Shown: positions 1,333 to 24,393 of the stretch, piece by piece
Layout of the letters: each line of letters opens with the position of its first letter
Position numbering within the stretch: the first letter of the stretch is position 1
Assembly: GCF_963921235.1 (NCBI RefSeq)
Contig: NC_086108.1
Span: 64,420,001 to 64,484,000 of the forward strand
Reading direction: 5' to 3'
DNA from: Mobula hypostoma
Taxonomy: Eukaryota
DNA: 64,000 nt
Position numbers and translations under genes: made by a program
The notes under the pieces: model-generated
Seen by the model: the letters and a program-made list of their open reading frames with translations, nothing else
What the model was told of the DNA's origin: nothing
Databases searched by the model: none

Positions 1333-2467
1333 CTTCCTCAGCACTACCTGTTCCCATGGGCTGTTGATTTCAATACTTGAACTTAGCCATGAGAGTGGAA
1401 TAATAATCTACTTCTGTATCTGGGTAGGGATGACCTGGAGTTCGTAATATTCCCCATGTTGGTGATATTCTGTCTTTGTCCTTAAGGGGCCAAAACTGTG
1501 GGTACGGGTTAAATCTGCTCACACAGTTCTTCTTCAACACTGTATTGATGAGTCAACCTAGCCGTTTTTTCTCAGATCCTGAAGTGCAGTCAGAAGCATA
1601 TACTTCTAACTAATCAAAAAGTAGCAACCATATCCTCATCTAGACCCAAGTCAAATCCAGTTCACATCCTAATAAAATCGCCATGTCTGAAGGGTTATAT
1701 GTAAAGAAGGACTTTGCTGACTGTAGTCTGTTGTGTGGTTGCGTGATGAGAGTTTTTTTTTAACTGTTAGTTTTAGAGGAACTAAGCAATTACATATTAA
1801 AGGTTTAGGGGCATCTGGGGCAAATGGGGAAGCTTTGATGGGCATCTTGGCCAGCATAGTCTAGTTGGGCTAAAGGGCCTGTTCGCAAGCTGTGTGAATC
1901 AATGGCTCTATGACTTGTAACCGTCTGCTTAACTGGTTCCACCAGAACGATGGGGTTAAGTATGACCCACAAATAAATAATTAAATAATCAGGGCAAAAA
2001 GAAATTACATACAGATCATGGACATGGGACATTAGGTAGTCATTCAATCTTTCTTCCCTGTGTTGAATATAGACCCATCTGGAAGTTAATTTTACTTCTT
2101 CCATTTTCCTTTTTCTGTCATAAGATATTTTAAAGTTCTTGTCTTCCTGAGTATAATCTACTAAATTCTTAGTCATAGACATAGTGTTATACACCCTAAA
2201 AGTAGGCTATCATCCCTCCATGACCATGCCGCTCTTGAGCCCATCCACACTAATTCAGATCACCCACATTGTTCTCTGCCCTATTTGCATCATCTTCACA
2301 TTCCCTGCTCCACTTCCAATCATCCCGCCCTTCCTGCCACACTTGACCACTGATTACTACAGCACATTCCTCGGTTAAGTGTTCATTTGCTCTGACCATC
2401 TCTGTTCCTGGTTTTTCCTGCATGGTTCACTAGGCCATCACTCTTTTAGGTCTGCATCCATCAATGA

Positions 2468-2822
2468 CATAGAAACATAGAAAACCGACAGCACAATACA
2501 GGCCCTTTGGCCCACAAAGTTGTGTCAAACATGTCCTTACCTTAGAAATTACTAAGGTTACCCACAGCTCTCTATTTTACTAAGCTCCATGTACCTATCC
2601 AAAAGTCTCTTAAAAGACCCTATCGTATCCGCCTCCACCACCGTTGCCAGCAGCCCATTCCATGTACTCACCACTCTCTATGTAAAAAACTTACACCTGA
2701 CATCTCCTCTGTACCTACTCCCTAGCACCTTAAACCTGTGCCCTCTTGTGGCAGCTATTTCAGCCCTTGGAAAAAACTTCTGACTATCCACACGATCAAT
2801 GCCTCTCATCATCTTATACACA
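2468..2822 (-). mobile_element. CR1 LINE 3' fragment
   Basis: VYKMMRGIDRVD..TRGHRFKV in ORF 2678-2866, plus a (catagaaa)n tail. Confidence 0.9.
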
Positions 2823-4079
2823 TCTTCCTTCTGGCAGGCAAGCGCCACACTGCTTCTCCCTTTCAAGTCTTCATAAGCCCCACTCTGCAGTCAGATTGTC
2901 AAGTCCCCTCAGGGCCATCCTGCTTCCTCCGTACTCTTCCCTGCAGCCCTCTACCTCTGTGCCTTCATAGTTCATTCTCGTTTTGTTCTGTATTCAAAGT
3001 AAACTGGTCCATCCTTCATCCTACCTGGTACGGTGGCTTACCACCCTGCACTTCCTCATGTTTTACGGTCCATTTCCAACCACCAGGCTTTCCGGGCAAC
3101 TGATTCTGGTTACGCACTCCTTGGTTTATTGCCCCTTCACCCTGTCCATCTATTCAAACTATACCGTCAGTTAGGGCATCGCCCTTTCAGGTCATCATGA
3201 GCTTCGTCCTGATATCTGACTTTCTGTTCCACCTGAGCCACAACTTGCCTTCTCCTCTTAAAAAAGAATAAATCCAAGGTAAAAAAGAAGCATGGGGTGA
3301 TGGTTATGGAGGGTATTTTTACTCATAATGGTGTCGTTTTACAGAAAAGAAATAGACCAGATAATGTTTTTTCAATGTGTCTGTAAAATTCAGCTCTACC
3401 AAAGCAATTCAACAAGAAACAGAGAATGGAAACCAAAATCTAATCCGCAATACAAGTCTTGAAGAGTCATTTTTAGCTAAGGCTGAATTTTACGAACCTC
3501 CAGGATTTCTGCAGTGAAAGTATTTACTTGTGGAAAAGTGTCAAAGACTAAGTCATGACAAAGTAAACTAGACTTGGAAAGATTTGGTGATCTCTTCTGT
3601 TCCAGTGGGGAACAGCTTATACAGGGACACACCTGGGAAATTGCTGTGTGCAACTGTTCTCCACTCCTTGGGATTGCAGCATCACCCAGTCATCCTTCCT
3701 TCCTCATTAGTGTTAGGTGGCAGCTAGCAATTGCTACTAAAATGATAAATTGCAAGATTGCGTGAAATTACCAAGTGCTTGAGCAATGCCATAGAGGCAG
3801 TGATGTTGTCTTTAAAATTATACATTTTAACATGTGTTTTCACCTGTGGTCTGTGGGTGTTGTGAAGTTTGAATAATTTGATTTTAATTTGGAACTTATT
3901 GCAGCCTGAAGTAAATGTCATCTTTCCTCTTACAAGGTGGATTGTTTTACATATACTAATTTAAATTAGCACTTCATCACCAATGCAGTTTTAAAATATG
4001 TATTTCAGAATTCTGTAGAAGTCTCTATTGTTCATATTTACAGCAAAATGAAACCATTTTTATGCTGTAGAATTAATAT

Positions 4080-5735
4080 AAATTGATTCATGTCCTACTT
4101 TGGAATGAAAAAGAAGAGTTCGTCACATAAACTAAACACTAATTTGGAAGACTTTTGAAGTCTTACTAATGAATGACACACATAACTGGCTTGAAAGTTT
4201 TGTGGAAAACAGTTGTTAAGCACACTATACTTGTTGTCAGATAGTATCTTGTAAAGATTGAAACACTTCAAACAAAAATGTTCCATCTTGCTTTCAACTC
4301 CAAGAGATTTATGCTTTCTTCTATAGAACTATTCTGTGTACAGAAGGTTTCAGTAGAGTATAATAGGAATACTTATGAATATAACTCCAACAACAAATAA
4401 TGTTTTTTATCTGCTTGATCTTTGTTCATTAGGTTTTGAGTTTGTTTTCCACTTGAACACAAAAATGATGGATCATTAGTCACTAAGAATTTTTGAAAGG
4501 AATAAAAGGAAAATCGATAACAAAAAGGCACTTGTCATTCATAGATTCCCATCACTGGACTAAACAATAATAGATGTCTATATTGCCATACTCAACCAAG
4601 CTGATGAATTTGAAGGCCAAGTACTTCAGCTAATTTATTGTTGTCAATTTCTCACTGAAGAATAACACAGTGCTATTGCTGTTGTACGATTACCTTAGTT
4701 TGTATTATAAAGCGTTTGCAAAATGTTTCTGTACATTTTACAGCTTAGAATGTGCAATTGAAAGTAAAATATTGCAGTTGGACATTACCCAAGTCATTGC
4801 CTTGAACCCCATATTAACGAATAGGAGGTCAAAGAGCAGGGAGTAAAAGAATCAAAAGGACCCTGCTGAACTTGACAAGAAACCCTCAGATAAATTTGAT
4901 AACTAGTCAATTTGGAGACTGGTTAGCCATGAAGAAGGAATGTCAAGGCAACTGAATATGATAGTTACTGTCAGAGTGGAGTGGGCTCAGAATGTGGACA
5001 GAGTGGGGATTGGGTAACAGTGCTGAGGGAACTTGTAAGGTTCTAACAGCATGAGGCAATTATCGAGTCAGAGAGGAGATTATAAGAACATAAGAAACAG
5101 AAGCAGGAGTAGATTACGTGACCTCTTGTGCCTGCTCCATCATTCAGTAAAATTATGGATGATATTTTACCCTAGTGCCACTATCCTGAACTAATTCCAT
5201 GCCACCTGATTCACTTAATATTAAAAATCTATCAATTTTAGTCCTGAATATTTTCAATAATTGCACCAGCTCTTTTAGGCAGAGAATTCCACTGAATCTG
5301 GGTGAAGAAGGTTCAGATTATTTAGTCTGTCCTGAATAGTTACCCCTAAATTGAGGCTGTGAACTCTGTAAAATCATTGAGCATTTCAGTGACATTACCA
5401 CTTATGCCTTGAAAGTCAGAACACTGTTTATTTAACTTCTCTGATCCCAAAAAAAAATGCCATTGCAGGATGCAGATCAGAATGCTAACAAATCTAACTG
5501 AATTAATCTCGACTCCCTAGCTTGAGTGACAATTTGGGAGTGCAAAGGTGCTGCAGTTAGTGGGGCTGACTCACACCTCCAGAGGCTCGGTTCAGTTCCA
5601 TTCTCTGGCACAGTTTGTGTGGAATTTGCATGTGATTGCATGGATTTTCTTTCGGTTGTCTAGTTTCCTTCATCATCCCAAAGGTATTCTACAAGTTAGA
5701 AGTAGAACTTCCCGTACCTAATAAAGTAACCTTGG
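4080..5735 (+). repeat. Left arm of a long inverted duplication (partner 62236-63911)
   Basis: The reverse complement aligns colinearly with 62236-63911. It covers ~1 kb of sequence I do not recognise as a repeat, a CR1 tail, a SINE fragment and a Tc1 end, in the same order in both arms. Confidence 0.97.
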
Positions 5736-6084
5736 AAATTTTTAAAAGATAGTTGTCCTCAGTGAGTTTTAAATATGTTCTAAGAATTTTATCTAAATTT
5801 CAACAGCCATCACAAAAAATATTTTAACTGGGTTCAAACTACCTCATTAACTGGAAGTATTTCCTCCTTGATAGGAAGGGAGGACCAACTGCTTAAATAG
5901 TTCACATTGGCAGTGAAACACAGTGGAGGATAAACAGGGAAGTAATCTAACCTTTGATGAATAGGTAGCTACTGCTTAACCTTCCTTAATGAGGGTACCC
6001 GTAGCTACCTATATCAGATATCTTTATCCTTAAGATCTTTGTTTGAGATCAGAACTTTATGCACAGTGAACAAAATACCATCGC

Positions 6085-6545
6085 ACTGTTATTGGAGAAG
6101 GTCATGAGGCGATCTCGGGAACAAGAGGGTTAATATATGAGGAGCACTTAATGGCTCTGGGCCTGAGCTCACAGGAGCTTGGAAAAATGAGGGAAGATCT
6201 CTTTGAAATCTATTGAATATTGAAAGGACTAGATAAAATGAACATGGAGAGGATGTTTTTAATAGTGGGAGAACTTCAGAATAGAAGGACATCACTATTG
6301 AACAGAGATTATGAGAAATTTCTTTAGCCAGAGGGTGGTGAAGCTGTGGAATTCATTGTCACAGCTGGCCATAGAGGCCATCAGTGGGTATACTTTAAAG
6401 TAGAGGTTGATAGTTTTATGATTAGTAAGGGGGTCAATGGTTACAAAGAGATGTAACCATGAAAATGGAGTTGAGAGGGAAAATAAATCAGCCATAAATG
6501 AATGGCAGAGCAGAACTTGATGGGCTGAATGGCCTTTTCTCTCTG
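6085..6545 (+). mobile_element. CR1 LINE 3' fragment
   Basis: 'aaatttctttagccagagggtggtgaagctgtggaattcattg' followed by the CR1 3' UTR 'gatgggctgaatggcc'. Confidence 0.85.
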
Positions 6546-7049
6546 AGTTCAATGGTGTGGCAGAGAGTTCATCCCTCCTCCATCCCCTCACATGTTTTCA
6601 CTTAAGTTTATAATTGTCCCTTCTCTAGGTTTAATAATAACTGAGCAACAGTTTGATTAGCATGACAGAGGTCATATGATGATCTCTGGAAAGAAAATCA
6701 AGGCAACCTTGGCTCCACAGACAATCCAGATCTCCCAGTACAAGGCCTTCAGCCAGCTGTTTATGCATCCCCAATTAATGTAAAATAAATACTCAGGGAA
6801 GTAACAGCACTGTTCAATTCTAGGAAACAATTTGCCTTTTTAATACCTTGAGTGGTTTCATTTACTGTGCACAATGTTACAAAAACATTAGCCATTTCCA
6901 TTTGTCCTTACTGGTTCTGCACTGCCATTTTGCCATGCTTATGCTTTTGTGTTTTCAAAAACTGCTTGGAAAATCAATGAAGCTCCAGGAGATATTGCAG
7001 ATATTGCTGCATGGAATTGTGCCTCTGAATCTTTATGACACTTATTAGT

Positions 7050-7703
7050 CAAACGCCCTCGTTTCCTTGGCTGCGTAAGTAGAAGGAAGGCAACCTCCAG
7101 CCCCGTCAAACTCATGAGATTGAGGCGTGCCCGATCCCACCCCAAAGCCCCGGTGTGTGTGGATGCTGTGTCATTTGCTGCCCTGTTACAAATTAGTGCC
7201 ACAAAATAACAGACAGCACAGTGCAAACCGATTAAACGAATTATATTTAAGAATCTTAACTGAAGGGCTAGTGAAGAATAACATAAAGAAAAGGGCCCAT
7301 TCTGATTAAACAGTCAAATGTGCGCAAGTTGGAGCTCATTTTGAACTTCTCTATCACTCACATGCTGGGCCCTCAGACAACGTGAAAGCACACACCGCCT
7401 CCTGAACGTCACTCACAATCCATCTTGAATAAACTGATCTCCCACCGGTTCACATGCTACAAACCGGTTCTCCCCAGCATCTTCTCTCTTCGTCTCCTCT
7501 CAAGCAAAAGCTCCCAGCCCAACCTTAGTGGCCCTCACCACAGAAATCTCCCCTTAATCCGACCATCCTAATTAGATGGCACACATTTCTCCTCTCTCTT
7601 ATCTTCAGCAGTAACCCAAACAAACAGGAAAACAGAACAGACTGTTCTTACAGATCCGCCAAAATGAAATACATACAGTAAAAATATGAACCAGGAAATT
7701 ACA
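7050..7703 (-). mobile_element. Probable solo LTR
   Basis: A ~650 bp block, richer in CpG than its surroundings, ending '...aattaca'. It resembles a reverse-oriented Gypsy LTR. Termini and TSD are not clearly resolved. Confidence 0.35.
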
Positions 7704-9237
7704 TTCCATAATATTGTCCTAATATTGAAAGGAGCAATTTGTCCTTGAAAATAAATCTAAGCACAATTTTGTAACTCAGCTGCCTGCCTAATAAAATGAT
7801 CTCCCAAAGATTCACACCTCCTTTAACATCTCATTGGAAAGATCTTGGGACCTAACTTTGTTTGTGGGCTGTTAAAAAGTAGTATTCAGCCACTGTCCAC
7901 ATGTCTGAACTCCCAACACATCTCTCTTTGGGACCTTGTTTCATTTTCTGCCTAATATCTCACTATTCAACCAGTTAATTACTGCTACTTAGAGACTCTG
8001 CTGTTACAGGCTGAAATCCTCTCAGCATAGTTGTGCGGCATGCTGCTTGCAGAGGACTGCTGAGACAGCGGTCTGAGGGAGGCCGCAAAGAAACCCAGCA
8101 CCTCCCTTGGCTCTCTGCAACAGCAACAAACCCGTAGGGAGGCAGCCAACAGAGAGGAAGGCATGGTATTGTGGTAGGAACAGCAACACTTTGCATAAGA
8201 TTGCCGATCCCATGACACACACATTGTGGTAGGATCTGTACAGTCCAAAAGCCATGATGCATCACTTGTAAACAGTTAATAAGGAATAAGTACCTGTGGA
8301 ACTGGATATTATGTGACAAAACTAGGATCCTCCAGCAATAAATTTTATTCATTTGTTGTATTCATCATGAGTGGAGAGCATCATTTGTTTATATAGGTCA
8401 GATTTAAATGTTAAAGACAAACATGCATTTAAACCCGAAGGCCCCCACATTTTTTTCTCATGTGAATGAGGTTTTTGTATTAATTGTTGCCACGTGTTTA
8501 ATAATGTTTCACTTTCCCAATGTAAAGTTGCACAATAGTGTGAGATCAAAAATTTTTCAAGGTTTTGCCATAAATAGCATGACTTGTTTTCTTCCTACCA
8601 TGCATAACTTCTGACAAATTTGATCATTAAGTACAATTCATTCCATATGCATAGAAGATACAACTGCTAACTAACTGTCAAGTCTTATAGTGCACTCAAC
8701 GTTCTATATTTTTTATGGCTTAGAGGTCGGCATATCACCACTTCCATAGTTGGCACAGCTCCACCTGGTTAATAAACTTAATGGACCTTTTTAATTAAGG
8801 ATGACAAAAAAAGCCTTATTTATTAAAAACTTAAAAGACTTTTATTTTATCCAATGATTTTCAAAGTGATCTGACAGTGATCTATGGTTAATATTACCCT
8901 TCATATCTCAATCTTTAATTACTATCGGCAAAGATAATGGAAAGTATTTAAAATCAATGCTGCACTTTTTCTTTAATCTGGGTATGCTGGCAATCCCGGG
9001 ACACTCTCGCCCCTGCCCCATCAGAAAATGTGACCTTGCTGTTGTGTGTGTATCCAGGGTAGGAGAGGGATCCTGAAACAGTACCTGTGTCCAGATCAAG
9101 GATTAGATATGGTAGGCATTAGATGAAGAAAGTGTATAAAAATCTCAAGAATTCAACATTTTTATTGATAATATGAAAAAGCTCATTCATGTCTTGCCTC
9201 AATGGTAGTACTTTTCTCTTTGAATGTCAACACTATA

Positions 9238-9549
9238 CGAGGGGTGATTGATAAGTTCATGACCCAAGGTAGAAGGAGTCAATTTTAGAAAACCTAGCAC
9301 ATTTATTTTTCAACATAGTCCCCTCCTACATTTACACACACAGTCCAGCGGTTGTGGAGCATATGGATCTTGGACCTCCAGAAAGTGTCCACAGCAGGGG
9401 TGATTGATAAATTCGTGGCCTACGGTAGAAGGAGATGAGTTATTAACTTCAAGATTTCTGAATAATTACTGAAAGAGTTCAACTGCATGTGCAGGTAATG
9501 AGAGATGATCTCCTTCTACCTTAGGCCACTGACTTATCAATCACCCTCG
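9238..9549. mobile_element. mariner-like MITE
   Basis: TIRs CGAGGGGTGATTGATAAGT...ACTTATCAATCACCCTCG flanked by TA, with a third internal TIR copy near 9397. Confidence 0.9.
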
Positions 9550-9560
9550 TAGACCTATTC

Positions 9561-9814
9561 TGTTATGTTTTCTAATTCCAAAACATAAAACTAATTCAAA
9601 GGAAAAGACAGAGAGTCCAAAATGCGTCTAACTTTATTTTTTGCTTTAACTAAGGCATGCATGTATTACGTGATGGTGTAATGACATGTGACATTCATGT
9701 ACTATTACATTCCTCTATAACCCATATGATTTATTTGAAGCAAGAAAGAATGCTTAATCAAACAATATATTTACAATATTATTCAAATATTACTGAAATA
9801 TTAAATACACAACA
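9561..9814 (-). repeat. 3' LTR of the Gypsy element
   Basis: TGTT...AACA termini, adjacent PPT, similar to 14207-14451. Confidence 0.9.
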
Positions 9815-10082
9815 CTTCTCCTCCCTGCTCAGCTATAAATCCAACTCAATGTGGAATGCATCTCAATATTCTATATAATACCACTACTATACTGACATCC
9901 ACAACATTGTAAATTTAAAATTGACTCATCCAAACCTAAAGATTTAATTACCATGGAGGATTTCTTATTCTTGTGGGATAATGGCTTTCCTGATAAGGGA
10001 GGTCACTCTGCTTGGCAGGTCAGACTTGTAACTGTGAAAACAATCTCAGACTCTAGGGTTTGACTTAGGAAGTGGTTCTCTC

Positions 10083-11377
10083 TGGGGCCGGATTAACCTA
10101 GTAGCAAAAGTAGCATACGCTACAGGCCCCGCATTTTTGAGGGCCCTGCCTGCACTAAACGCTTGCAAGCTGCAGTCTGGTGAAATCGGCATCTCACTGT
10201 ATTCTCACGACTGTTAGAGTGAGTTTTGGGTAGACAATTCATTTACACTTAAATAAATGACTTCAGCCATCAGTTTTCTGTTCTTTGACAAAGTACTGTG
10301 GATTGAGTGGATAACAATGCATTTCCTAAAAGCTGTGAACCCAGTTTCATTTGTAATAATGCATCTCTGGTGCCTCTGAGGCAAAAGTGCTAAGTTTACA
10401 GGTAGTTGCGAAGACATTGTATCTATGCTTTTTGAATATGAATTGTCCTCTATGTTAGCACGTAACATACCAAATAATGTATTATGGATTTTAACTTGCA
10501 TTCCTAAAGGCCATGAATGTCAGTTTAGGCATACTGGCGCCGGTAGAATGAATTTAATCAAAAGATGTGAAAACTTTAAAGAATTGTCTACACTTGTAGC
10601 TATGAACTGTCCTTTGTTTAGCAAATAAATATCGAGTCTCAATCATAAAGTGGTTAGACCTGTTCTGCCAGAGGTCTCTGCCTGCTGTAACCTTGTTTTG
10701 TCAAATAAAGTAACCGCCTTCCATCTGCTGGTAACGCAACGCTCTGTGATTTCATCCACGCCACAACAACGTCATGTCGGGGAGCTGCATGCTGCATGGT
10801 ACAGTATGTGTGTGCAGGCGTGTGTTGGCTCCTTGCTGTGTCATGGTGACCTTAATGCTATTTCCCACGCTCCCAAGCTGTTGCAGCATGCGCTGTTACG
10901 CTGCACCGTCCAGCAGCGCCACGGTGAGCCTGCGACAAGGGATGTGCAACTCAATAGTTTTATGTGACCCAGTTCATGATTCCTCATTTTCAAAACTAAA
11001 AAAAGGATTAAAAATGAACCAGGAGCACCATGGGTCAAAACAGATTGAACTATTTCACTCTAATGAGCATTGAACATGAACTTCTGCATGAAATAGACAT
11101 TTCCAGTATCATCATCAAGTTTGCTCATGCTAAACCTAGAAAATCTAACTCTTAAATTGTAGTTTTGACATTTGAAATTGATACCTACATGTAAGTAACA
11201 CTATTACTGAAGTGTCAGACATTTGTTGTATTATCTGGCTGTATAGCAAATGAAAAAATTGAATTACTTTACTATGCAATTAAATAATTTATGTTTTAAT
11301 ACTTATGTTCATTTTCTAAATTTAGGGCCCCTTTATAACATATGCTACAGGCCCCGCACTAGCTTAATCCAGCCCTG
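10083..11377. mobile_element. Non-autonomous hAT DNA transposon
   Basis: TIRs tggggccggattaa / ttaatccagccctg. Perfect 8-bp TSD gttctctc at 10075-10082 and 11378-11385. Subterminal motif gctacaggccccgca near both ends. Confidence 0.9.
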
Positions 11378-11389
11378 GTTCTCTCAGAT

Positions 11390-12320
11390 CTGAAAGTGAA
11401 AGTTTCACCTTTCTTTTCCTTTTTTCCACTTTTTGCTTTTCTCCTAGTCCTGTCTTCATTCTCTCTCTTTACCCCACTCTTTATCTCTCTAACATTATTT
11501 CTCTCTTTTTTGCCTTTCTCTTTCTCGCTCACAATCTTTCCCTCAATCTCTTCTCTCCTTGTCAACTTCTTGTCTTTCTTTTCCTTGCCTTCCATTTTCT
11601 TCTTCTAGTTTCTTGGGAGATTCTCTGCTTTTGCTCAGATATTGAGAAATTGGATCTTGTTTACCCTCTTCCACTTCCATAGCATTAATGTCATCATCTT
11701 CTTTCTTTTCCTTTTGTTTTACTTTTTAGTTTGTGCATCTTGATCTTGGGAAGGTGCATTCAGTTCCCTGGATTACTCGCTTATTAATCCTTCCATTGTT
11801 CTCTTTACAATTTGATCTCTCCTCTTAGTTTCCTCATCCACAACAACATCTCATGAATCCTCAGTTTTTGTATCTCAATTGACTCCTTTCTTTTTGGCCT
11901 TCCATTCACCCATCTGGGCTTTGGTCTTTGCATCCACTTTTACAAGCAGCTTTTTGTCTTCCCTTGGAGTTTATGTAATAATCTTAAAGTTCACAGAGAA
12001 GAATCTGGCTCTATTTACTCACAAAAAAAATGAGTGCTTCCAATTTTCCTGAATATCTTTGAACTCTCTTCCAGCTTAAAAGCAAGTCATATTTCACACG
12101 TAATTGTGCCTGATTTACATAACAGAAGCTTTCTCAGATACTGTATGTTGATTACAAAAAATGTTATGGTCAGACCATTATTTTCTCACTTTCACAATCC
12201 CTCTGAGCAGCATGGTCCTTCCTTGGTCTAATATGCTCTCCAAACAAAGGAAAAGAGGTTGGCACCAACACGCTCTGTTGTGTTTTGTTGGGCAATGGTC
12301 CATGGTGTGCAGCATGGCCA
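11390..12320 (-). pseudogene. RBM25: Processed (intronless) RBM25 retrocopy fragment: N-terminus, RRM and start of the RE/RD-rich region, with stops and frameshifts
   Basis: Minus-strand translation gives, in order: VLVPT..RKDH, SEKAS, LSWKRVQ..SGKL, FCE..EP..LRLLH, KKLLVKVDAKTKAQMGEWKAKKK, DEETKRRDQ, ELNAPSQ, KEKKED, DINAMEVEE, KKLEEE. These are colinear with RBM25 as I recall it, with no introns. Confidence 0.92.
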
Positions 12321-12489
12321 CAGTTGTAGCATCGTCTAGTAACTTTCTTAATTCACTTCCAGTTGACTCTATTGCAGGGGATGTGGCATGTAAATGGTAG
12401 ATGGATCTCTAATCGAGTTATAGTTGTCTCAGTCATTCATAACCACACAATGCTGGCCCTCCTGTTTCTAACCATATAGATGATTCCTA

Positions 12490-12905
12490 TATACACTGGA
12501 ATTCAGAAGAATGAAGGGTACTATCATTGAAACTTATTGAATGCTAAAAGGCCTTGATAGAATATATATGGAGAGGATATTTCCTATGGTGGGAGAATCT
12601 AAGACCAGAGGACATAGCCTCAGAATAGAGAGGCGCCCTTTTAGAATGGAGAAGAGGAGGTATTTCTTTAGCCAGAGAGTACTGAGTCTATGAAATTTGT
12701 TGCCACAAGCAGCTGTGGAATCCAAGTCTTTATGTTTATGTAAGGCAGAAGTTGATAGATTCTTGATTGGTCAGGGCATGAAGGGATACAGAGGGAAGGC
12801 TGGAGACTGGGGCTGAGAGGAAAAATGGGAATCAGCCAAGATGAAATTGCAGAGCAGTCTCAATGGGCCAAGTGGCCTAATGCCACTCCTATATCTTATG
12901 GCATA
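12490..12905 (+). mobile_element. CR1 3' fragment inserted into the Gypsy protease region
   Basis: SKTRGHSLRIERRPFRMEKRRYFFSQRV followed by the CR1 3' UTR. Gypsy protease sequence continues on both sides. Confidence 0.9.
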
Positions 12906-13289
12906 TCACTGTTACAAATGTCATTCACACAGGAGTTATCTTTTCTCCAGTATAAACTCTTAATTAGATATCTGCAGGATTCAGTTTAGTATCTTTGAAA
13001 TGCCATTCAAGCTCATTTTCTGGAATAACTGAAACAGCCGAGCCATTGTCCAATTCCATTTTAATTAATTTGCCATTCACTTCTGGTTTAAACTATATTC
13101 TCTCCTTTTAGTTTTCACATAGAAAATCTCAAGGCTACACAGTCCTGTGTCACTCTCATCATTATCAGATCTTTCATCAACAACATGCAGATTAATACTC
13201 TTTTTGAAACTGCAATTTGACTTTTTACCTTTATCTCTTCTCTATGCAGTCCATGTATTTTTGACAGACCAATATGTGCTTCCTATGTG

Positions 13290-13955
13290 TCCTATTTTGT
13301 TGCACTTTCAGCAAGTTTCACCTTTAAACCTGCATTGGTCTGGTGTATGTGAGCCCCTGCCACAACAGTAACACAATTTGTTCAGCCAGGCAAGTTTCTG
13401 TTGAGACCTTGTACTTTTGTTCATGCTCACTTTCATTCCTGACTGCAACTCAGTTGCATCTCTGTCTGCTGTTTCCATTGATACAGCTATTTCAACTGCT
13501 CTTTTAAATGTAAGTTGTGTTTCAGTTAGGAGCCATTTTTGGAGGCTTTCTTGTAAGATTCCGCAAACCAAATGATCTCTCAGTGCATCATTAAGCTCAT
13601 ACTGAACCGACAATGCTCAGACAATCTCTTCAATCAGCCATATATGCTGAAATGGACTCCCCTTCCTTCTGATTCCACTTATGAAACCAAAAGCACTCAG
13701 CAAACAACAATGGGTTCATTTCTAAATGTTGCTGCATTACTTTCATTTTCAGCTGGTTTTGTTGGAGCTGTTAAACTTCTAAGCAAACTGTATATCTTTA
13801 AATCCAATGCCCTCAGCAAAATAGGCACTCACTTCTCGTCTCATCAGCTATTTCATTTGCTTTAAAATCCCTCTCAATTCACACAGTACACAATTATCCA
13901 GTTATCTTTTGTGTAATTAAATGTGTCAATCTGTCTGATGTAGCCAGCAATTTCT
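13290..13955 (-). pseudogene. Gypsy gag remnant with CCHC zinc knuckle
   Basis: ORF 13308-13613: LNDALRDHLVCGI..CYCCGRGSHTPDQCRFKGETC. Confidence 0.8.
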
Positions 13956-14206
13956 GTTTATTTTATGATTATCACCAACCAGTGCTCATTGTTTATGAGC
14001 CTGTGAATTCTTCGGTTTTCTAACTTTTTTAACTCAATCATCTTTCCTTTTGCTAAGAAAATGTGCTGCTCCGAAAAAACAAAAACATGCTACAATTCTT
14101 TTTAACTCTACCATTTTTTGCTGCGCTTATTTTTACTCAAATGTCTTGCTGCTCTTCAACAAGTAGGTAGTCGTCTCAGGTTCATTTAAAACTTCCTCGT
14201 TGCCAC

Positions 14207-14451
14207 AGTCATGTTTTGTAACTCCAAAACATAAAACTAATCAATATAAAAACATGAGATTGTGGTATAATGTATCTAACTTCATTCTTTATTTCAAGCA
14301 AGGCACTCATGTATAATGTAAGATGATATATGTCATTCACGTACTGTTACATATAACCCAAAATGAATTATTTAAACAAATAAAGAATACTTAATCAAAC
14401 AATATATTTACAATATCACTCAAATATTACTAAAATATTAAATACACAACA
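14207..14451 (-). repeat. 5' LTR of the Gypsy element
   Basis: Matches 9561-9814 and has the PBS immediately internal. Confidence 0.9.
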
Positions 14452-14854
14452 CATTCCTGAACTTTAAGTTCAAGGTTAAGGCTCATAATCTAATGTAGAA
14501 GTGCAGGAGATGTCTTTTAGATAAAAGTTAAACCACCTGTTCTTTCATATGAGTGCAATAGAAAACATGACAATTAATAGTGTTACAACATCATGATCAT
14601 AATTTCAGTCCAGGGACGGTAGTGTTATTGAGTTTACATGATGGAAAGAAGATGGGGGTTGCAATTATGCAATGCTTTTGACATAAGAATATCCAGTACT
14701 CACCATGGGGGCTTGAGAGAAATTTTGACTCTTTGGCAATTAAGGAAAAATTAGGCGACACAAGAGACTGCAGATGCTGGAACCTGGAGCAACAATTGAT
14801 CTGCTGCAGAAACTTTGCAGTTCAAGCAGCATCTGTAGGTGGAGGAAAGGAACT

Positions 14855-15400
14855 CAAAGTTCAAAGTGTTATTCTCAAAGTGCATACATATCACCATATA
14901 CTACCCTGAGATTCATTTTCTTGTGTGAATTTACAATAGTTACAAGAAAACACAATAGAATCAATGAAAAACTACATACAAAGATAGACAAACAACCAAT
15001 GTACAAAAAAACGACAACTTGTGTGAACACAAAAAGAAAAACAAAATAATAAATAAATAAATAAATATTGAGATCATGAGTTGTAGAGTCCTTGAAAGTG
15101 AGCCCATAATTTTTGGAACCAGTTCAGTCTTAAGGTTGGTGAAATTATCCATTCTGGTTCAGGAGTCTGATGGTTAATAACTGTTCCTGAAACTGATGGT
15201 GTAGGATCTAAGGCCTCTGTACCTCCTTTCTGGTGGCAGCGAGAAGAGAGTGTGGCCTGAGTGATGGAGGTCCTTGACAATGGATGTAGCTTTCTTATGT
15301 AGGCTTTTCCATTTAAGGAGATTGGTGTTTCCATACCAGGCCATTATGCAACCAGACAGTACACTTCTCGCTATGCAAAGAGTTTGTTGATGCTTTAGGT
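14855..15400 (-). mobile_element. Rex1/Babar-type LINE 3' fragment
   Basis: VLSGCIMAWYGN..SIVKDLHHSGHTLFSLPPERRYRGLRS..FRNSY, plus a (ctttgaa)n tail. It is inserted in a Penelope-like end starting near 14757. Confidence 0.8.
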
Positions 15401-15844
15401 GACAATCATTCAATAGTTCCATTTAATATCAGAAAAATGTATGCAATTTACATCCTGAAATTCTTGTTCTTCACAGACATCCACAAAAGCAGGAGATTGC
15501 CCCAAAGAACAAATGGCGGTTAAAACATTAGAACCCCAAAGTCCTCTCCTACCCCCCACCCCACGCACAAACAACGACCCCCCCCGCCCACTTCCGCAAA
15601 AGGCATCAGCACCCTTCTCCAACCAAGCATGCAATAGCAAAGCCTCCAATGCTGAATCTCTGCAAACTTCTTAGGTTGAAACTCTGCATTGGGAAAGATG
15701 AGTTATAATAGTGTATTAGTTATTTCGGTGAAGTTGTAACGTCACTAAGGTAGGAAAAGGTAAGATATCACAAGGAGACACAAGAATGAGAGAAATGAGG
15801 ATTTAAAGGAAGGGCTAAATAGGTGGAGTGAGAGTCAGAAGACC

Positions 15845-16050
15845 AATGTGTGCGTCCTCCCCATGGAATGTGTGGGTCTTCCCTGGTCCTCTAGTTTCCA
15901 TCCACAGTCCAACAACATACCAGGTAGGTGAATTGGTCATTGTAAATTGTTCTGTGATTAGATTGGTGTTGATTTTGTTTGCCAGGGGTTGTTGAGGCTG
16001 CGTGACTCAAAGGGCCTGAAAGGGTCTTCTTCGTGCTGTGTCACTAAATT
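15845..16050 (+). mobile_element. SINE fragment (shark/ray SINE2-like)
   Basis: 'tgcgtcctccccatggaatgtgtgggt...aattggtcattgtaaattg'. Similar copies lie at 58290-58515 (minus) and 59370-59650. Confidence 0.55.
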
Positions 16051-16788
16051 AATTAATTAATTAATAGATTTAACAATAAGCCTTATTTGATTGGCATCAC
16101 GGTCTACACAGAAGAGGATGTGGAAAGCAAAAGCAGCATGGTTGGGAAGTAGGATTTTGGTGAGGAGCAACATCTCTTCAGCCGCGAATCAGCATTCATG
16201 CTAATGACAAAATCTACATCTCCTTTGTGCTCTGTATGGGTCTTGTGTACAGGAGAGAGCAGAAACACTGGAGGAAATTGTGAAGCAGATCTGCAAGACC
16301 TGGATCAGGCTGGTTGGAGAGCACAGGGCAGAAGGTCCTGTCATGTTATCTCTGATGAGCACTTAAACACCAATAACAGTGGTTATCAGAGCAGCTTGGG
16401 TTGCTGTACTTCAAGGAAACTGTGTCAAGTATCACAATTCACTGTTTGTGTTTGCTGGGAGAAGAATCGAGGGCAGCAAAGTCTCATTCAATGGAGATCT
16501 CAGCTAAGAAAAAATATTGAGTGATAAATCAGACTGAGGATCAGCAGAAAAAGAGAGAAATTATAGTTCACACTATTGACATCATTACTGATTATCTCAG
16601 ACAGGCACTAACATTGTGCCTTTACCAAAGGCAATAATTGTAAAACTGACACTTAAACCACACTAAATCACCTGACTATTTTGTCTTTCCGTGGCCATTT
16701 AGGCTATTTCCAGTGGGTCCTCATTTCCTGTAATTTGTCCAATATCATTTCAATGCAGTTAAGTCATTTGATTAGTATATATGAAATA

Positions 16789-17741
16789 CAGTGGATTCTG
16801 GTTAACTGGGCTCAATTAAGCAGCTGCCCTAATTAGCCAAAGTTTCATGGAAATAGTTAGAAAGGTATAAAAAAAAGACCAACTACATTTAACTGAGTAA
16901 CAAATTATGTATTTAAGTGAAATACAGAACAAATTAGAACACTACCAATACTACTAGATTACTATAAAATTGTGTATTAGTTCCTAATATTTTTGGACAG
17001 GGAAACTCAGCATACATTGTCACATTCTTTTGATTAACAAAAACAGTGCTCTAGGTAATAGAGTGCCTTTATACAACGCTATCAATGATTGCATCCTCCA
17101 AATCTTCATTCTCATTCTAACATTCAAGATGATTGGCGATACCATCAGATTCTTCGTAACTTGTTGAAGTAGCGAAATCATTTCACTTACACTCCCAGTC
17201 GTTTCTGGCATCTCCAAGCCTGAATATTGAAACTGCAGTAAGCAAAACAGTTCTGAATTGTCTTACTGCTTATTTTTCACCAACTATCAGTGGCAGAAAT
17301 CACTGTTTCTTGAACACAAGCACATGCGACTGACACTATCTAAACACTGTTCATTCTAAGCACGGTGCAGTGTCTAATGGCCATGTACGAGGGATGATTG
17401 ATACGTTCGTAGCCTAAGGTAGAAGGAGATGAGTTATACAGCTCTCATTACATGCACATGCAGTTCAATGCTTTGAGTGATTATGCAGAAAGTTTAAAGT
17501 TAATAACTCATCTCCTTCTACCTTAGGCCACGAACTTATCAATCACCCTCATAAGTGCACGCGTCTGACACAAGCTAGAAACTATTTGCCAAATGTCCCC
17601 TGCCCCAATTCAATGTCTTAGTGTCCCAAATAAATGAAGTAAATCCCAGCTATTTTCTTGATTAGCTTTTGTTCTTTAAGAGTTGTTCCAAATAAGTGGC
17701 TGCCCCAATTAACCATTCACCCAAATAACCAGAATCCACTG
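16789..17741. mobile_element. Tigger/pogo-like non-autonomous DNA transposon
   Basis: Perfect TIR cagtggattctggtta / taaccagaatccactg with TA on both sides. Confidence 0.9.
17388..17551. mobile_element. Short mariner-like MITE nested in the Tigger element
   Basis: Same TIR family as 9238-9549, with ~50 bp inverted arms and TA flanks. Confidence 0.9.
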
Positions 17742-18296
17742 TATCTTGAAATTGATTGGAACACATTCAGAATCTGTTCAAACACACCAGATCACTAAAG
17801 AAAAATCTCCAAGAAGATTGTTTTAAGTTTCCAGCACAAAAACAGCTGCTTTTTTTCATCCATCCATGTAAGCTTCATGTTTTGCAAGCACGTTCAACCA
17901 CATGAATCATGGTTTTCTCTAAATTAAAAGGAGAAAAAGTTGAACATTTTCAGCTGTTCGGGCAACATCCATGGAGAACAAAAATACTAGGTTGATGACC
18001 TATTTTATTTCCTTAAAATGGGAAAGAAAATATCAGTAATTGGCTTTAATGTCTATGTTTAAATTGCAGAACAGGAGAAAGGATAGAAGGAATAAAGGGA
18101 ATATTCATGACAGGGCAGAAATCAGGAGAGTTGGTTGAGAGAGGGTGGTGAAGGCTTCTACAGGAAGTGTATATGGTCGGAGATAAATGAGAATGGAGGA
18201 GAGAAAAAAATTGCTGGAACTGTGAGATAGAACATATGGCAGTTTCTAGAAATTTGATATTTAAAAGGAGAATGCTAGTAATCCCCAGTAGGTAAA

Positions 18297-19460
18297 CCAC
18301 ACAGGAGATTAGTGTGCAAACTTAAAGCACACGGTATTGGGGGTAAGGTATTGGTGTGGGTGGAGAATTGGTTAGCAGACAGGAAGCAAAGAGTGGGAAT
18401 AAACGGGACCTTTTCAGAATGGCAGACGGTGACTAGTGGGGTACCGCAAGGCTCAGTGCTGGGACCCCAGTTGTTTACAATATATATTAATGACTTGGAT
18501 GAGGGAATTAAATGCAGCATCTCCAAGTTTGCGGATGACACAAAGCTGGGCGGCAGTGTTAGCAGTGAGGAGGATGCTAAGAGGATGCAGGGTGACTTGG
18601 ATAGGTTGGGTGAGTGGGCAAACTCATGGCAGATGCAATTTAATGTGGATAAATGTGAAGTTATCCACTTTGGTGGCAAAAATAGGAAAACAGATTATTA
18701 TCTGAATGGTGGCCGATTAGGAAAAGGGGAGGTGCAACGAGACCTGGGTGTCATTATACACCAGTCATTGAAAGTGGGCATGCAGGTACAGCAGGCGGTG
18801 AAAAAGGCGAATGGTATGCTGGCATTTATAGCGAGAGGATTCGAGTACAGGAGCAGGGAGGTACTACTGCAGTTGTACAAGGCCTTGGTGAGACCACACC
18901 TGGAGTATTGTGTGCAGTTTTGGTCCCCTAATCTGAGGAAAGACATCTTTGCCATAGAGGGAGTACAAAGAAGGTTCACCAGATTGATTCCTAGGATGGC
19001 AGGTCTTTCATATGAAGAAAGACTGGATGAACTGGGCTTGTACTCGTTGGAATTTAGAAGATTGAGGGGGGATCTGATTGAAACGTATAAGATCCTAAAG
19101 GGATTGGACAGGCTAGATGCGGGAAGATTGTTCCTGATGTTGGGGAGGTCTAGAACGAGGGGTCACAGTTTGAGGATAGAGGGGAAGCCTTTTAGGACCG
19201 AGGTTAGGAAAAACTTCTTCACACAGAGAGTGGTGAATCTGTGGAATTCTCTGCCACAGCAAACTGTTGAGGCCAGTTCATTAGCTATGTTTAAAAGGAA
19301 GTTAGATATGGCCCTTGTGGCTACAGGGGTCAGGGGGTATGGAGGGAAGGCTGGGTTCTGAGTTGGATGATCAGCCATGATCATAATAAATGGCGGTGCA
19401 GGCTTGAAGGGCCGAATGGCCTACTCCTGCACCTATTTTCTATGTTTCTATGTTTCTATG
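18297..19460 (+). mobile_element. Young 5'-truncated CR1 LINE with an open ORF2 C-terminus (RT)
   Basis: A 349-aa uninterrupted ORF (18312-19361) with SGVPQGSVLGP, FADDTKL and YKALVRPHLEYC. Ends in a (TTTCTATG)3 tail. Confidence 0.97.
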
Positions 19461-21289: not shown

Positions 21290-21870
21290 CGAGGGGTGAT
21301 GGATAAGAATTGAATTGAATTGAATGATCTTTATTGTCATTATGCTTAGGTACAATGAAACTCGGCTTTGCTTCCTCTCAGGCAATTAAATAAAGTGGTA
21401 GATAAAAACAAGACAGTAATAGAAAAACAGTATTAAATAGATAAGTAGCAGAAAATAAGTTGCAGCGGCACCAGAATATCACAATAATGCACGAAGTGCC
21501 ATTAGTGCAAGTATTTGAGTCCTTGTGTATGCTTGTGTGAGCTCACAGTTTCAGTCATTGTTCTGTGGGAGTAGTGTGACGGAGGCCACAGTTCGTGGAC
21601 TAAGGTAGAAGGAGTCAATTTTAGAAAACCTAGCACATTTATTTTTCAACATAGTCCCTTCCTACATTTACACACTTAGTCCAGCGGTCGTGGAGCATAC
21701 AGATCCCTTCTTTGTAGAGTCGGTGTCCTGAACCTCTGGAAAGTGGTCCACAGCAGGGGTGATTGATAAATTTGTGGCCTAAGGTAGAAGGAGATGAGTT
21801 ATACAGCTCTTGTTACATGCAAGTGCAGTTAAACTCTTCGAGTGATTATGCAGAAAGTTTGAAGTTAATA
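21290..21870. mobile_element. mariner-like MITE interrupted by a LINE tail (~21309-21589)
   Basis: The TIR cgaggggtgatggataag is split from 'ttcgtggactaaggtagaagg' by an insert tailed with (aattg)n. The body matches 9238-9549. Confidence 0.8.
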
Positions 21871-24393
21871 GCTAAATTTGGAAAACTTGTGCTTACCAAC
21901 CAGCACCTCAAACAGAAAACTCTATTTGAAGGAGCAAAATACCAATTAGCAATTTAAACACCATTATGAACATGCATCTGGCAGAATGAACCCCTTAGGT
22001 ATGATTTTATTATTTGCAGTAACTAAAAATATGAAATTTTAAATTATGTTTGGTTGGACATCATTACCTTGCAAATGAATCAAGCAAACATCAAAACTAT
22101 ATAACATTAGTTCACAGATAGCAGATTGAAGTTAAGCAGTTAGCCCTCAAGTGAAAATTTTATTCCACAGTTCTAGAATAGGTGTGTCACTTGGGGTAGT
22201 ACTTGGATTTAGCCCGTGCAGATCAACCAGCGATTATAGACCTGAGTGTAACCTATTAGAAAAATACTGTATGTGTATGATCAGGATTGGGATATAGCTG
22301 TAAGGAACAAGTGGCATCTCTATCCAAGCTCACATAAAGGAAATGGCTCCTAGATTTGGAGCTGGATGCTGCAGGGAGCAGGAAGAATGGCCCATGGATT
22401 CTGTTATGTGGAAAGGATAAAGAGAAATGACACAATTCGGAGGGGCTCCTTGAAAATGCCATGCAAAAAGTCCATCAGAAAACTGACCACTGCACATTTA
22501 ACTCTTTGGCTTAATGCAGTTTTCATTTCAAAATGATACATCTTGTTTAATATTGGAATCAATCAAACCCTATGCTCTTCCGAGCAAACCATTTTTATTT
22601 AAGAAATTATTGGGCTAAAACCACTAATTCATTATGACACAGTGTATGAATGCCTGTGCTATTTTAATGAGTCAAGAAAATAAAGAAATATATCATGTAC
22701 AGAAGTAATTTAGTTTAAACTTTTAAGTTTTCTCAGCGTGATATGAGTCAGTTAGTCCAGAATGGCAAAATATATTCTACCTATTTTACACATCATAGGA
22801 AATAGGTGTATTTCAAAGCATGCCCACTGACTGAGATATCCTGCAATAATTTATGATGAAGGTGCTTTAGGGAAAGTGTACACATACCTTCAGGTGAATT
22901 TCTCTGCTTTGGTTTAATGTAGGCACTGTCAGGTCTGTTTAATGAGTTGGTTCCCTCTGGTGTATCATGCTTTTACAATATGAAAGTCACGATTACTTTG
23001 TTTATATCCAGAAAGGGAACAGTAATGGTCTGTGTACAAGGTGATACTTTGTCACAGATAAATCATTCGTCTTATAAATCACTTGTACTAGGAGAGGTCC
23101 ATTTGAGGCATCCAGCAGGATCCAATATTTTATTGGGAAAAAAGTGCATTTAATTTTTTCTTATTTTTTTCATCTTATTTCCTCTTGTTTCTTAACCATA
23201 TCATGGGAACAGAAACCATTGTTTGCTCCTCCTGTATCTTCAAAGCTACTCTCTGTGACACCAGGATATAGAAAATGATTCAGGTAATTTTGTATGTTAT
23301 AAATGGAGAGGATAAGTTTCATCAAATTTGTGACAGTAGTTTAATTTATGAAATGTCATTATTAAATCAATAATTTCTACTTAAGCTATCCTTCTGCTGT
23401 TCAGTTCTTCTGATTGATAAAGCTTTCAGCAGACCTTACTAGTGCTAGTTTTGTGAGAGGATGGCAAGGTTGTTAAGGCTGTGTCTCCATTCACGAATGA
23501 AGTAAAGGGCAAATAAAGTCAAAGTGGATGTCAGTCCTGTATTTTAGTAGTGATAAACTTCTAATAGCATTCGACAATATTAGTGCTCAGCAAAATATAA
23601 GTTAATTAAGCAGCCAGAAGAAAGCCACATCTAGCAAAGTTAACAGTGATGACAGAATAAGAATGCATTAATATCATGAAATGCAAAGGATATTGCAGAC
23701 ATTAATTGTCAAATGATTCCCATTGAGGTGTCTCTGCAGAGACATGGGCGGAATTGAGAAAGAATAATACTGCAACAAATGTGGCAGCTTCTTAAAAAGT
23801 TGACTGAGGTAAAAGGGCAGCCATGAAAGTTTTATTAAATTACCTAAGTCTGTGTTGGGACCACTATCCATGTAAAACAAATAATATAGATGACAGTATT
23901 GAGACTATGTTAAAAACTGCAGACAACAGTAGAGTTCAAATTGTATAGCAGTCAAAAAAATGAAAACCTAATGTCATAAACAACAAGAGGGAGAAGAAAT
24001 TGGTAACCCTTCAAGAGCTGCAGGAGGATAATTTCTTGAAGCTGACAACTTCGCAAAGGTTAGAAATACTACTCATGCTTCATTTACAATAAAGTAATAC
24101 CTACAATATATTTTAGTTTGGTTTTAAATAGAAATCTACCAGATTCTAGTTATTTTCTAGCTGAGGTATTTATCATTCAACATAATACCATGCCTATTTA
24201 AAGGAAATGCTACTACTAGTTTGTGTATGTAAATTTTGGAATAAAATTGACCATAAAACAAATTATTAAGATTAATTTTGGTTGAATTGATTGCAAGCCT
24301 TTAATTCATATGCCCAAATATATTATTGTGGCAAAAGTCATGAATATAAAAGACAAGTTTTACGATTTTAGTTATGAACTAACTAAATCATGT

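Follow-up and report, generated by a model that had tools for sequence, protein, structure and literature searches.

Probable capture of a spliced RBM25 mRNA piece by a Gypsy retrotransposon and spread of the chimera in a cartilaginous fish genome

The window analysed here, a 64,000-nucleotide stretch of the Mobula hypostoma genome (contig NC_086108.1, positions 64,420,001 to 64,484,000), carries at positions 9561-14451 a long terminal repeat (LTR) retrotransposon combined with coding sequence of the host splicing-factor gene RBM25. We conclude that this is probably a dead Gypsy copy whose pol core was replaced by spliced RBM25 through two template switches, and that the chimera then likely spread in trans. 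On the minus strand the element reads 5' LTR, primer site, gag-protease, RBM25 piece, pol tail, polypurine tract and 3' LTR, within a 5-bp target duplication. The original prediction, made from the letters of the window alone, had described this layout, and every part of it was found in the sequence. It had also named RBM25 as the inserted gene, expected several parental exon junctions to be crossed, placed the loss of the reverse transcriptase (RT), RNaseH and integrase core exactly at RBM25, seen no poly(A) or target-site duplication around that piece, and proposed a chimeric non-autonomous family in a cartilaginous fish; the results below bear out each of these points. Its reading of a retrovirus-style capture is supported as well, and we infer that the switching occurred during reverse transcription inside a particle.

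The identity of the captured piece is established by its protein and genomic matches. An 83-codon piece of the window copy, with stops read as X, matched 148 proteins, the best being a shark protein at 82%, and every functionally named protein among 120 listed matches was RBM25 or an RRM/PWI protein. The intact parent RBM25 gene lies on another contig (C1, 99.79-99.84 Mb), where the nine exons used have AG/GT ends and an open frame. This gene was located with a fish RBM25 C-terminus as query; a PWI family search had led to exons that we take to be SRRM1- and PRPF3-like, not to RBM25. The window piece (12331-11408) and the spliced host gene are identical at 716 of 854 bases (84%), and the exons joined in the captured piece span ~29 kb of the parent gene. 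Seven exon junctions are crossed in the window copy, and an eighth, deleted there, is retained in other copies. The captured content starts 10 nt short of one exon's end, continues through a 48-nt cassette exon, the RRM exons and an RE/RD-rich exon, and stops about 30 nt into another exon; the start codon and the PWI domain of RBM25 lie outside it. Seven of 203 residues separate the corresponding host piece from a shark protein, a likeness that points to a cartilaginous fish. The 48-nt exon of host RBM25, VSMLYTMNRCPTEGKQ (G000:C1:99832633-99832586, in L046), is present in shark proteins P0002 and P0123 and missing from the bony-fish and frog RBM25 proteins viewed. The captured mRNA included this exon, and the element is a fossil of that isoform.

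Both ends of the RBM25 piece lie at short identities between host mRNA and pol, microhomologies that the original prediction had suggested looking for. At the 5' switch point (12325-12331, minus strand), the 7-nt motif TGCCACA is common to host mRNA and the pol of RT-bearing copies (TGCTACA in the window copy), and gag-protease is fused to RBM25 in frame. At the 3' switch point (11408-11417, minus strand), host mRNA and pol tail have the 9-nt GAGAAGAAA in common, which is changed in the window copy; here the RBM25 piece is shifted relative to the pol frame, ruling out the idea that both junctions are in frame. At a random switch, an identity of at least 7 nt has a probability of ~7e-4 and one of at least 9 nt a probability of ~5e-5. 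The first host base of the RBM25 piece is identical in nearly all loci, 40 further chimeric copies having been selected by the 5' junction itself. An intronless partial mRNA thus stands in place of an internal open reading frame (ORF), with microsimilarity at the switches and with neither poly(A) nor a duplication bracketing the RBM25 part, as in LTR-mediated retrocopies; the poly(A), target-site duplication and intact 3' end of a processed pseudogene made by a long interspersed nuclear element (LINE) were not found.

The sequence that RBM25 replaced is preserved in RT-bearing sister copies. Thirty loci were chosen by their likeness to the 149 bp immediately before the switch; of these, 28 run into RT-like sequence, one of them (L074) being broken off exactly at the junction, and 2 (the window copy and L069) run into RBM25. 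Long RT-bearing copies have LTR, gag-protease and pol tail in common with the window copy, and their RT-RNaseH-integrase occupies exactly the position of RBM25 between the switch points. This span measures 2,278-2,497 bp in the three sisters with the least disturbance and 1,044-3,250 bp across the 8 measured of 12, and ~2.3-2.5 kb of core is accordingly absent from the chimera. The domains of L086 follow in Gypsy order, RVT_1 (E 2e-11), RT_RNaseH_2 (4e-20) and Integrase_H2C2 (6e-7), and the order protease-RT-RNaseH-integrase without env is found in the RT-bearing sisters L086 and L088, elements of 4.5-4.8 kb. Paired LTRs with TG..CA-type ends, a primer-binding site, a polypurine tract and a target duplication complete the Ty3/Gypsy features. 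No copy among the loci examined has RBM25 together with RT. The window copy itself gave zero Pfam hits, scans of the window frames being uninformative, and a query with the protease gave zero scored relatives.

The closest named relatives of the backbone are the teleost Gypsy polyproteins P0161 (Labeo rohita) and P0159 (Metynnis hypsauchen), which are 40-60% identical to the decayed frames over gag, protease, RT, RNaseH and integrase; they differ from the window element in having no host insert. This nearness to teleost polyproteins is evident in spite of the decay (P0159 and P0161 against L086-L096). The Mag clade of Gypsy, which we take to be marked by two CCHC knuckles and a single gag-pol ORF, serves as a lead only in placing the element.

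The chimera is abundant and has its own history of transposition. With at most 2 mismatches, the chimeric 5' junction 25-mer has 913 occurrences in the genome and its RT-type counterpart 1,953 (controls 0), and the 3' junction has 460 chimeric (control 1) and 817 RT-type occurrences (control 0). Because the patterns differ at five positions, the chimeric and RT-type sets do not overlap, and the chimeric copies so counted, with flanks unlike those of the window copy, number in the hundreds. The 5' pattern is fitted by 15 of 35 copies sampled regardless of junction, which gives about 2,100 chimeric copies, and a binomial estimate at 12-14% divergence gives 2,200-3,000; we estimate the total at about 2,000-3,000. 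RBM25 DNA similarity led to 19 further loci; gag-protease lies upstream in every one of them, and pol tail or LTR lies downstream in 18. The 5-bp flanks of the 17 chimeric copies with both ends found agree at 47 of 85 bases, compared with 23.7 in shuffles and a value of 47 attained in 0 of 5000 of them; 11 of the 17 have fewer than 4 of 5 flank matches, which decay or wrongly placed ends would lead one to expect. The purine-rich part could be measured in 41 of 75 copies; it has deletion classes that recur, with 14 copies in a short one, and these reveal a succession of source elements. Since the copies have one switch point, target duplications of their own and deletion subfamilies, the chimera itself transposed. 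Many dispersed copies with their own target-site duplications and without RT or integrase thus coexist with a partner that has the same LTRs and primer-binding site, as in non-autonomous LTR families, and from this anatomy and the shared gag-protease polymorphisms we infer that the chimera was mobilised in trans.

Some chimeric copies have a local history. Three near-identical neighbouring copies (L028, L033 and L037; G000:C76, 4.5-5.1 Mb) have a long common branch with support 1.0 and are likely a later segmental duplication; a fourth hit lies near them at C76:4998349. In L034, junction and RBM25 piece form a tandem duplicate inside a single locus. A further chimeric copy is located at G000:C50:64374445, about 46 kb ahead of the window start.

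The family is old: the Kimura two-parameter (K2P) distance between paired LTRs has a mean of 0.24 in 12 chimeric copies (0.17-0.30) and a median of 0.23 in 6 RT-bearing copies, two of them poorly delimited; by this measure the two kinds of copy belong to the same era. Divergence between copies and host gene is 13.4% (73 of 75 copies kept). Words of the window copy are present in sequencing runs of ten organisms; no RNA run was among those listed, which bears neither way on transcription from the LTR. In the runs of four organisms, where the family is high-copy, the summed contig depth was about 1,800-19,000 on the RBM25 part versus 0-17 on the unique flank. Among the contigs listed, the 5' switch is bridged in three of these four runs, and in run X15 the border between LTR and flank of the window copy is bridged at 90% identity; run X9 has no coverage of the unique flank. 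The high RBM25-part depth and the bridged junctions and border in other organisms place the family before those splits, and the window insertion likely predates them too. A shark mutation rate of 7e-10 per base and generation (PMC10587355, from an excerpt) would put the age at 1.7e8 generations, an implausible value that was not used.

Selection tests, stratified in their final form by transition and CpG, were applied to the captured piece and its backbone. In the RBM25 part, rare variants have a ratio of nonsynonymous to synonymous polymorphism (pN/pS) of 0.9-1.0, stops included, and of 240 small indels, 212 are frameshifts. Between the column majorities of the copies and the host, 22 of 207 codons have synonymous and 6 have replacement differences; at 5-6 of the 6 replacement codons the host sides with sharks, in keeping with constraint on the host and its absence in the element. 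Two of the nine shared non-CpG variants (at least 20%) are synonymous, 2.2 being expected. The RBM25 piece was shown to have decayed without detectable constraint in the sampled copies, the 9 shared variants giving low power for the active phase. Neither an open frame nor purifying selection, as expected of a functional retrogene, was found in the captured piece, nor any other sign of its functional retention.

The events that we propose start from the LTRs, primer site, gag-protease and pol tail that RT-bearing and chimeric elements have in common. RBM25 mRNA would have been co-packaged with element RNA, and RT would have made a single jump onto the RBM25 mRNA at the 9-nt match and returned at the 7-nt match. 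The insert is spliced, cut within coding exons at both ends and flanked by the two microhomologies. With its LTRs, primer site and polypurine tract, the product would have been integrated and transcribed. The chimera then multiplied as an entire unit, gaining fresh target duplications and forming deletion subfamilies, and would have lost parts of its GA-rich repeat until the family was extinct. RT and integrase were probably supplied by RT-bearing helpers of the same age, with which gag-protease backbones were presumably exchanged, and the RBM25 piece, as judged from the sampled copies, decayed without detectable constraint, as a passenger. This course follows the model of Tan et al. 2016 (PMC5131818).

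Several observations weigh against this course of events. In the chimeric gag-protease, 21 of 36 shared variants are synonymous where 10.6 are expected (p=0.0003), an excess significant also at 15% and 25% cut-offs, and so are 12 of 20 among the alleles rare in RT-bearing copies (p=0.004); a pure passenger alone would not produce such an excess. The positive control is weak (14 of 34 synonymous in the RT-bearing gag-protease, p=0.11), the gag-protease tree is nearly star-like with the chimeras not forming a single clade, and the copies were sampled by similarity or exact junction match, with a bias to well-kept ones. Template switching is, moreover, not directly visible, and a DNA-level event would leave identical junctions. 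The gag-protease excess is best read as backbone exchange with helpers. Sixteen of the 36 chimeric alleles are common in RT-bearing copies as well, and a derived gag-protease haplotype, its sites picked after inspecting the data, occurs in 21 of 53 chimeric copies versus 2 of 54 RT-bearing copies and solely with a derived RBM25 marker (15 versus 0); those two RT-bearing carriers are a thin sample for helper exchange to lean on. Shared synonymous changes number 2 in 207 RBM25 codons versus 21 in 278 gag-protease codons (p=0.0004), and because the linked RBM25 part lacks matching changes, the cassette appears to have moved onto a diverged helper backbone. Within the gag-protease tree, 29 chimeric copies grouped as a clade that was discarded, having just one diagnostic RBM25 site. 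Alternatively, the chimera may have been half dependent: it would have continued to make its own Gag-protease, in an in-frame fusion with RBM25, under selection that preserved this frame during spread. The in-frame 5' junction, the synonymous excess and the derived haplotype would accord with this idea, as would 0 stops in 45 frequent RBM25-part variants and retention of the ancestral frame in 19 of 41 deletion variants. We nevertheless regard it as unlikely: a junction falls in frame by chance one time in three, neither the absence of stops nor the frame retention reaches significance and the copies behind them are non-independent, and the contrast in shared synonymous changes accords better with a single backbone swap than with gradual change in cis. 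A junction-spanning predicted protein was present neither among 40 matches nor among 150 listed of 353, the candidate P0155 being rejected as a lizard RBM25 gene model. That the in-frame capture was advantageous, through a Gag-protease-RBM25 fusion (RRM plus RE/RD) or through RBM25 RNA, as that of an essential host sequence, acting as a shield from silencing, is speculative and quite unlikely; if true, the advantage would have let a polymerase-less derivative reach about half its helper's copy number, and a retrotransposon would be using a transduced splicing factor as retroviruses use oncogenes.

Two further origins would dispense with switching during reverse transcription. In one, microhomology-mediated repair or a replication switch would have acted at the DNA level on a pre-existing RBM25 retrocopy, with non-autonomous spread to follow. 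Microhomology and a clean replacement are also compatible with break repair; however, the RBM25 exons 3' of the captured end and the PWI exons, used as queries, gave 3 matches each, all to the parent, so that no longer retrocopy appeared in a search that left the 5' side unsearched. The same-sense orientation and structure also agree with published retroposition cases (PMC5131818, in excerpt), and we judge a DNA-level origin very unlikely. In the other, a LINE inserted RBM25 cDNA into an existing element, pol being deleted separately or simultaneously. CR1-like LINEs are plentiful here, but the piece has no poly(A) or duplication and terminates within a coding exon, both RBM25 ends are pol breakpoints at microhomologies, and no copy with both RBM25 and RT was seen among the loci examined. 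This explanation is largely refuted and in our view highly improbable.

The window copy of the captured-mRNA element has the following anatomy, on the minus strand unless stated. The 5' copy of its target-site duplication, GAATG (14452-14456), agrees at 4 of 5 bases with the 3' copy, GAATA (9556-9560). The 5' LTR (14207-14451) and 3' LTR (9561-9814) have TGTT...ACA-type ends and are identical at 201 of 242 aligned bases (83%). The primer-binding site TGGCAACGAGG (14195-14205) is the complement of the 3' end of host tRNA-Ser(GCT) with one mismatch; 16 host tRNA genes match it, and 3 of 3 scanned were typed Ser(GCT). Decayed gag with two CCHC knuckles, followed by protease (12903-14000, start approximate), has many stops and frameshifts and resembles P0159 and P0161, and the protease frame ..ELRKLLDDATTV is present. 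Upstream of the RBM25 piece (11408-12331), which bears internal deletions, stops and frameshifts, lies the protease-RT linker as far as the switch point (12332-12479), common to chimeric and RT-bearing copies. The pol tail consists of a first part (11378-11407) and a second part down to the stop codon (9948-10082), and a polypurine tract (9815-9829) precedes the 3' LTR. This copy alone carries two inserts of later date. On the plus strand, 12480-12902 is a LINE 3' fragment, missing there in other copies, which we take to be CR1-like from its C-terminal motif; six further copies lie within the window. The other, at 10083-11377 with no strand assigned, is a DNA transposon with terminal inverted repeats and an 8-bp target duplication GAGAGAAC (the copy at 11385-11378 terminates the first part of the pol tail), presumably hAT-like; it has one copy only in the window, and its GC-richer middle (about 10600-10970) is maybe another nested insert. 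Several window copies (9240-9551, 17386-17553, 21755-21873) represent an element of ~155 bp that has terminal inverted repeats of ~40-46 bp and resembles a miniature inverted-repeat transposable element. The original prediction needs correction in some of these details. The switch sites exist, at 12331 and 11408 (924 bp apart) instead of ~12320 and ~11390; the pol remnant is present, at ~155 bp and reading QESHYPTRIRNPP instead of ~100 bp and ERHYPT..; the hAT insert was rightly recognised and its limits, given as 10083-11385, are 10083-11377 plus the duplication; and the LINE fragment in the protease region was missing from the inventory.

The family provides a population-scale record of mRNA capture, a process known mostly from single loci. 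The intact parent gene, the precise switch points of the single capture, a helper family and thousands of descendants occur together in one genome and in related species. This makes testable both enzyme borrowing and backbone swapping between non-autonomous LTR elements and their helpers, and any influence of thousands of copies of an essential splicing factor on RBM25 silencing. On the practical side, the copies can be expected to interfere with RBM25 annotation, with read mapping and with the counting of retrocopies in these fishes, and chimeric copies can be used as presence/absence markers in phylogeny. No report of an RBM25-carrying retrotransposon family was found in the literature, Repbase and Dfam not being covered. 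In the excerpt consulted of a 2026 preprint on vertebrate retrocopies (10.64898/2026.06.26.734816), RBM25 is absent from the main text, its supplements being a place where RBM25 may be listed, and the top cartilaginous-fish retrocopy parents are MIPOL1, SUDS3, SDF2L1, SLU7 and ZNF276; these may represent similar element-borne captures.

Published excerpts describe several systems with which the RBM25 chimera can be compared. The LTR-mediated retroposition chimeras of animals (Tan et al. 2016, Genome Res, PMC5131818) are alike in having a partial mRNA in place of part of an internal ORF with both LTRs retained, microsimilarity at both switches (theirs with a median of 6 bp), no poly(A) or target-site duplication, and more rounds as a non-autonomous element. 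In those cases the number of insertion sites is one to a few; here, one capture led to at least 913 copies, and the chimera amounts to about one third of the family, is divided into subfamilies and is present in several species. Maize Bs1 likewise has host exons in an LTR element, common switch points and secondary retroposition, but has 1-5 copies and three parents and is reported functional (PMC5131818); the present family has one parent, thousands of copies and no constraint that was found. Crocodilian endogenous retroviruses (ERVs) with nectin3 or KIT-ligand also combine a vertebrate LTR element with host mRNA captured before speciation (PMC4299795). Those captures sit in true ERVs, and nectin3 replaces env, with six insertions and ORFs under purifying selection; the Gypsy element described here, in contrast, lost RT and integrase, and its captured piece is unconstrained. 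The published LTR captures considered here have 1-6 copies (Bs1, Drosophila retrocopies and CrocERV31 nectin3; PMC5131818, PMC4299795). Bat Helitrons with nested retrogenes are similar as a transposon-driven multiplication of vertebrate host cDNA, but they are DNA transposons carrying LINE-type insertions with poly(A) and target-site duplication, in 118 copies over four cases (PMC4224331). The mechanism is already known (Tan et al. 2016, PMC5131818), and what is new is the scale.

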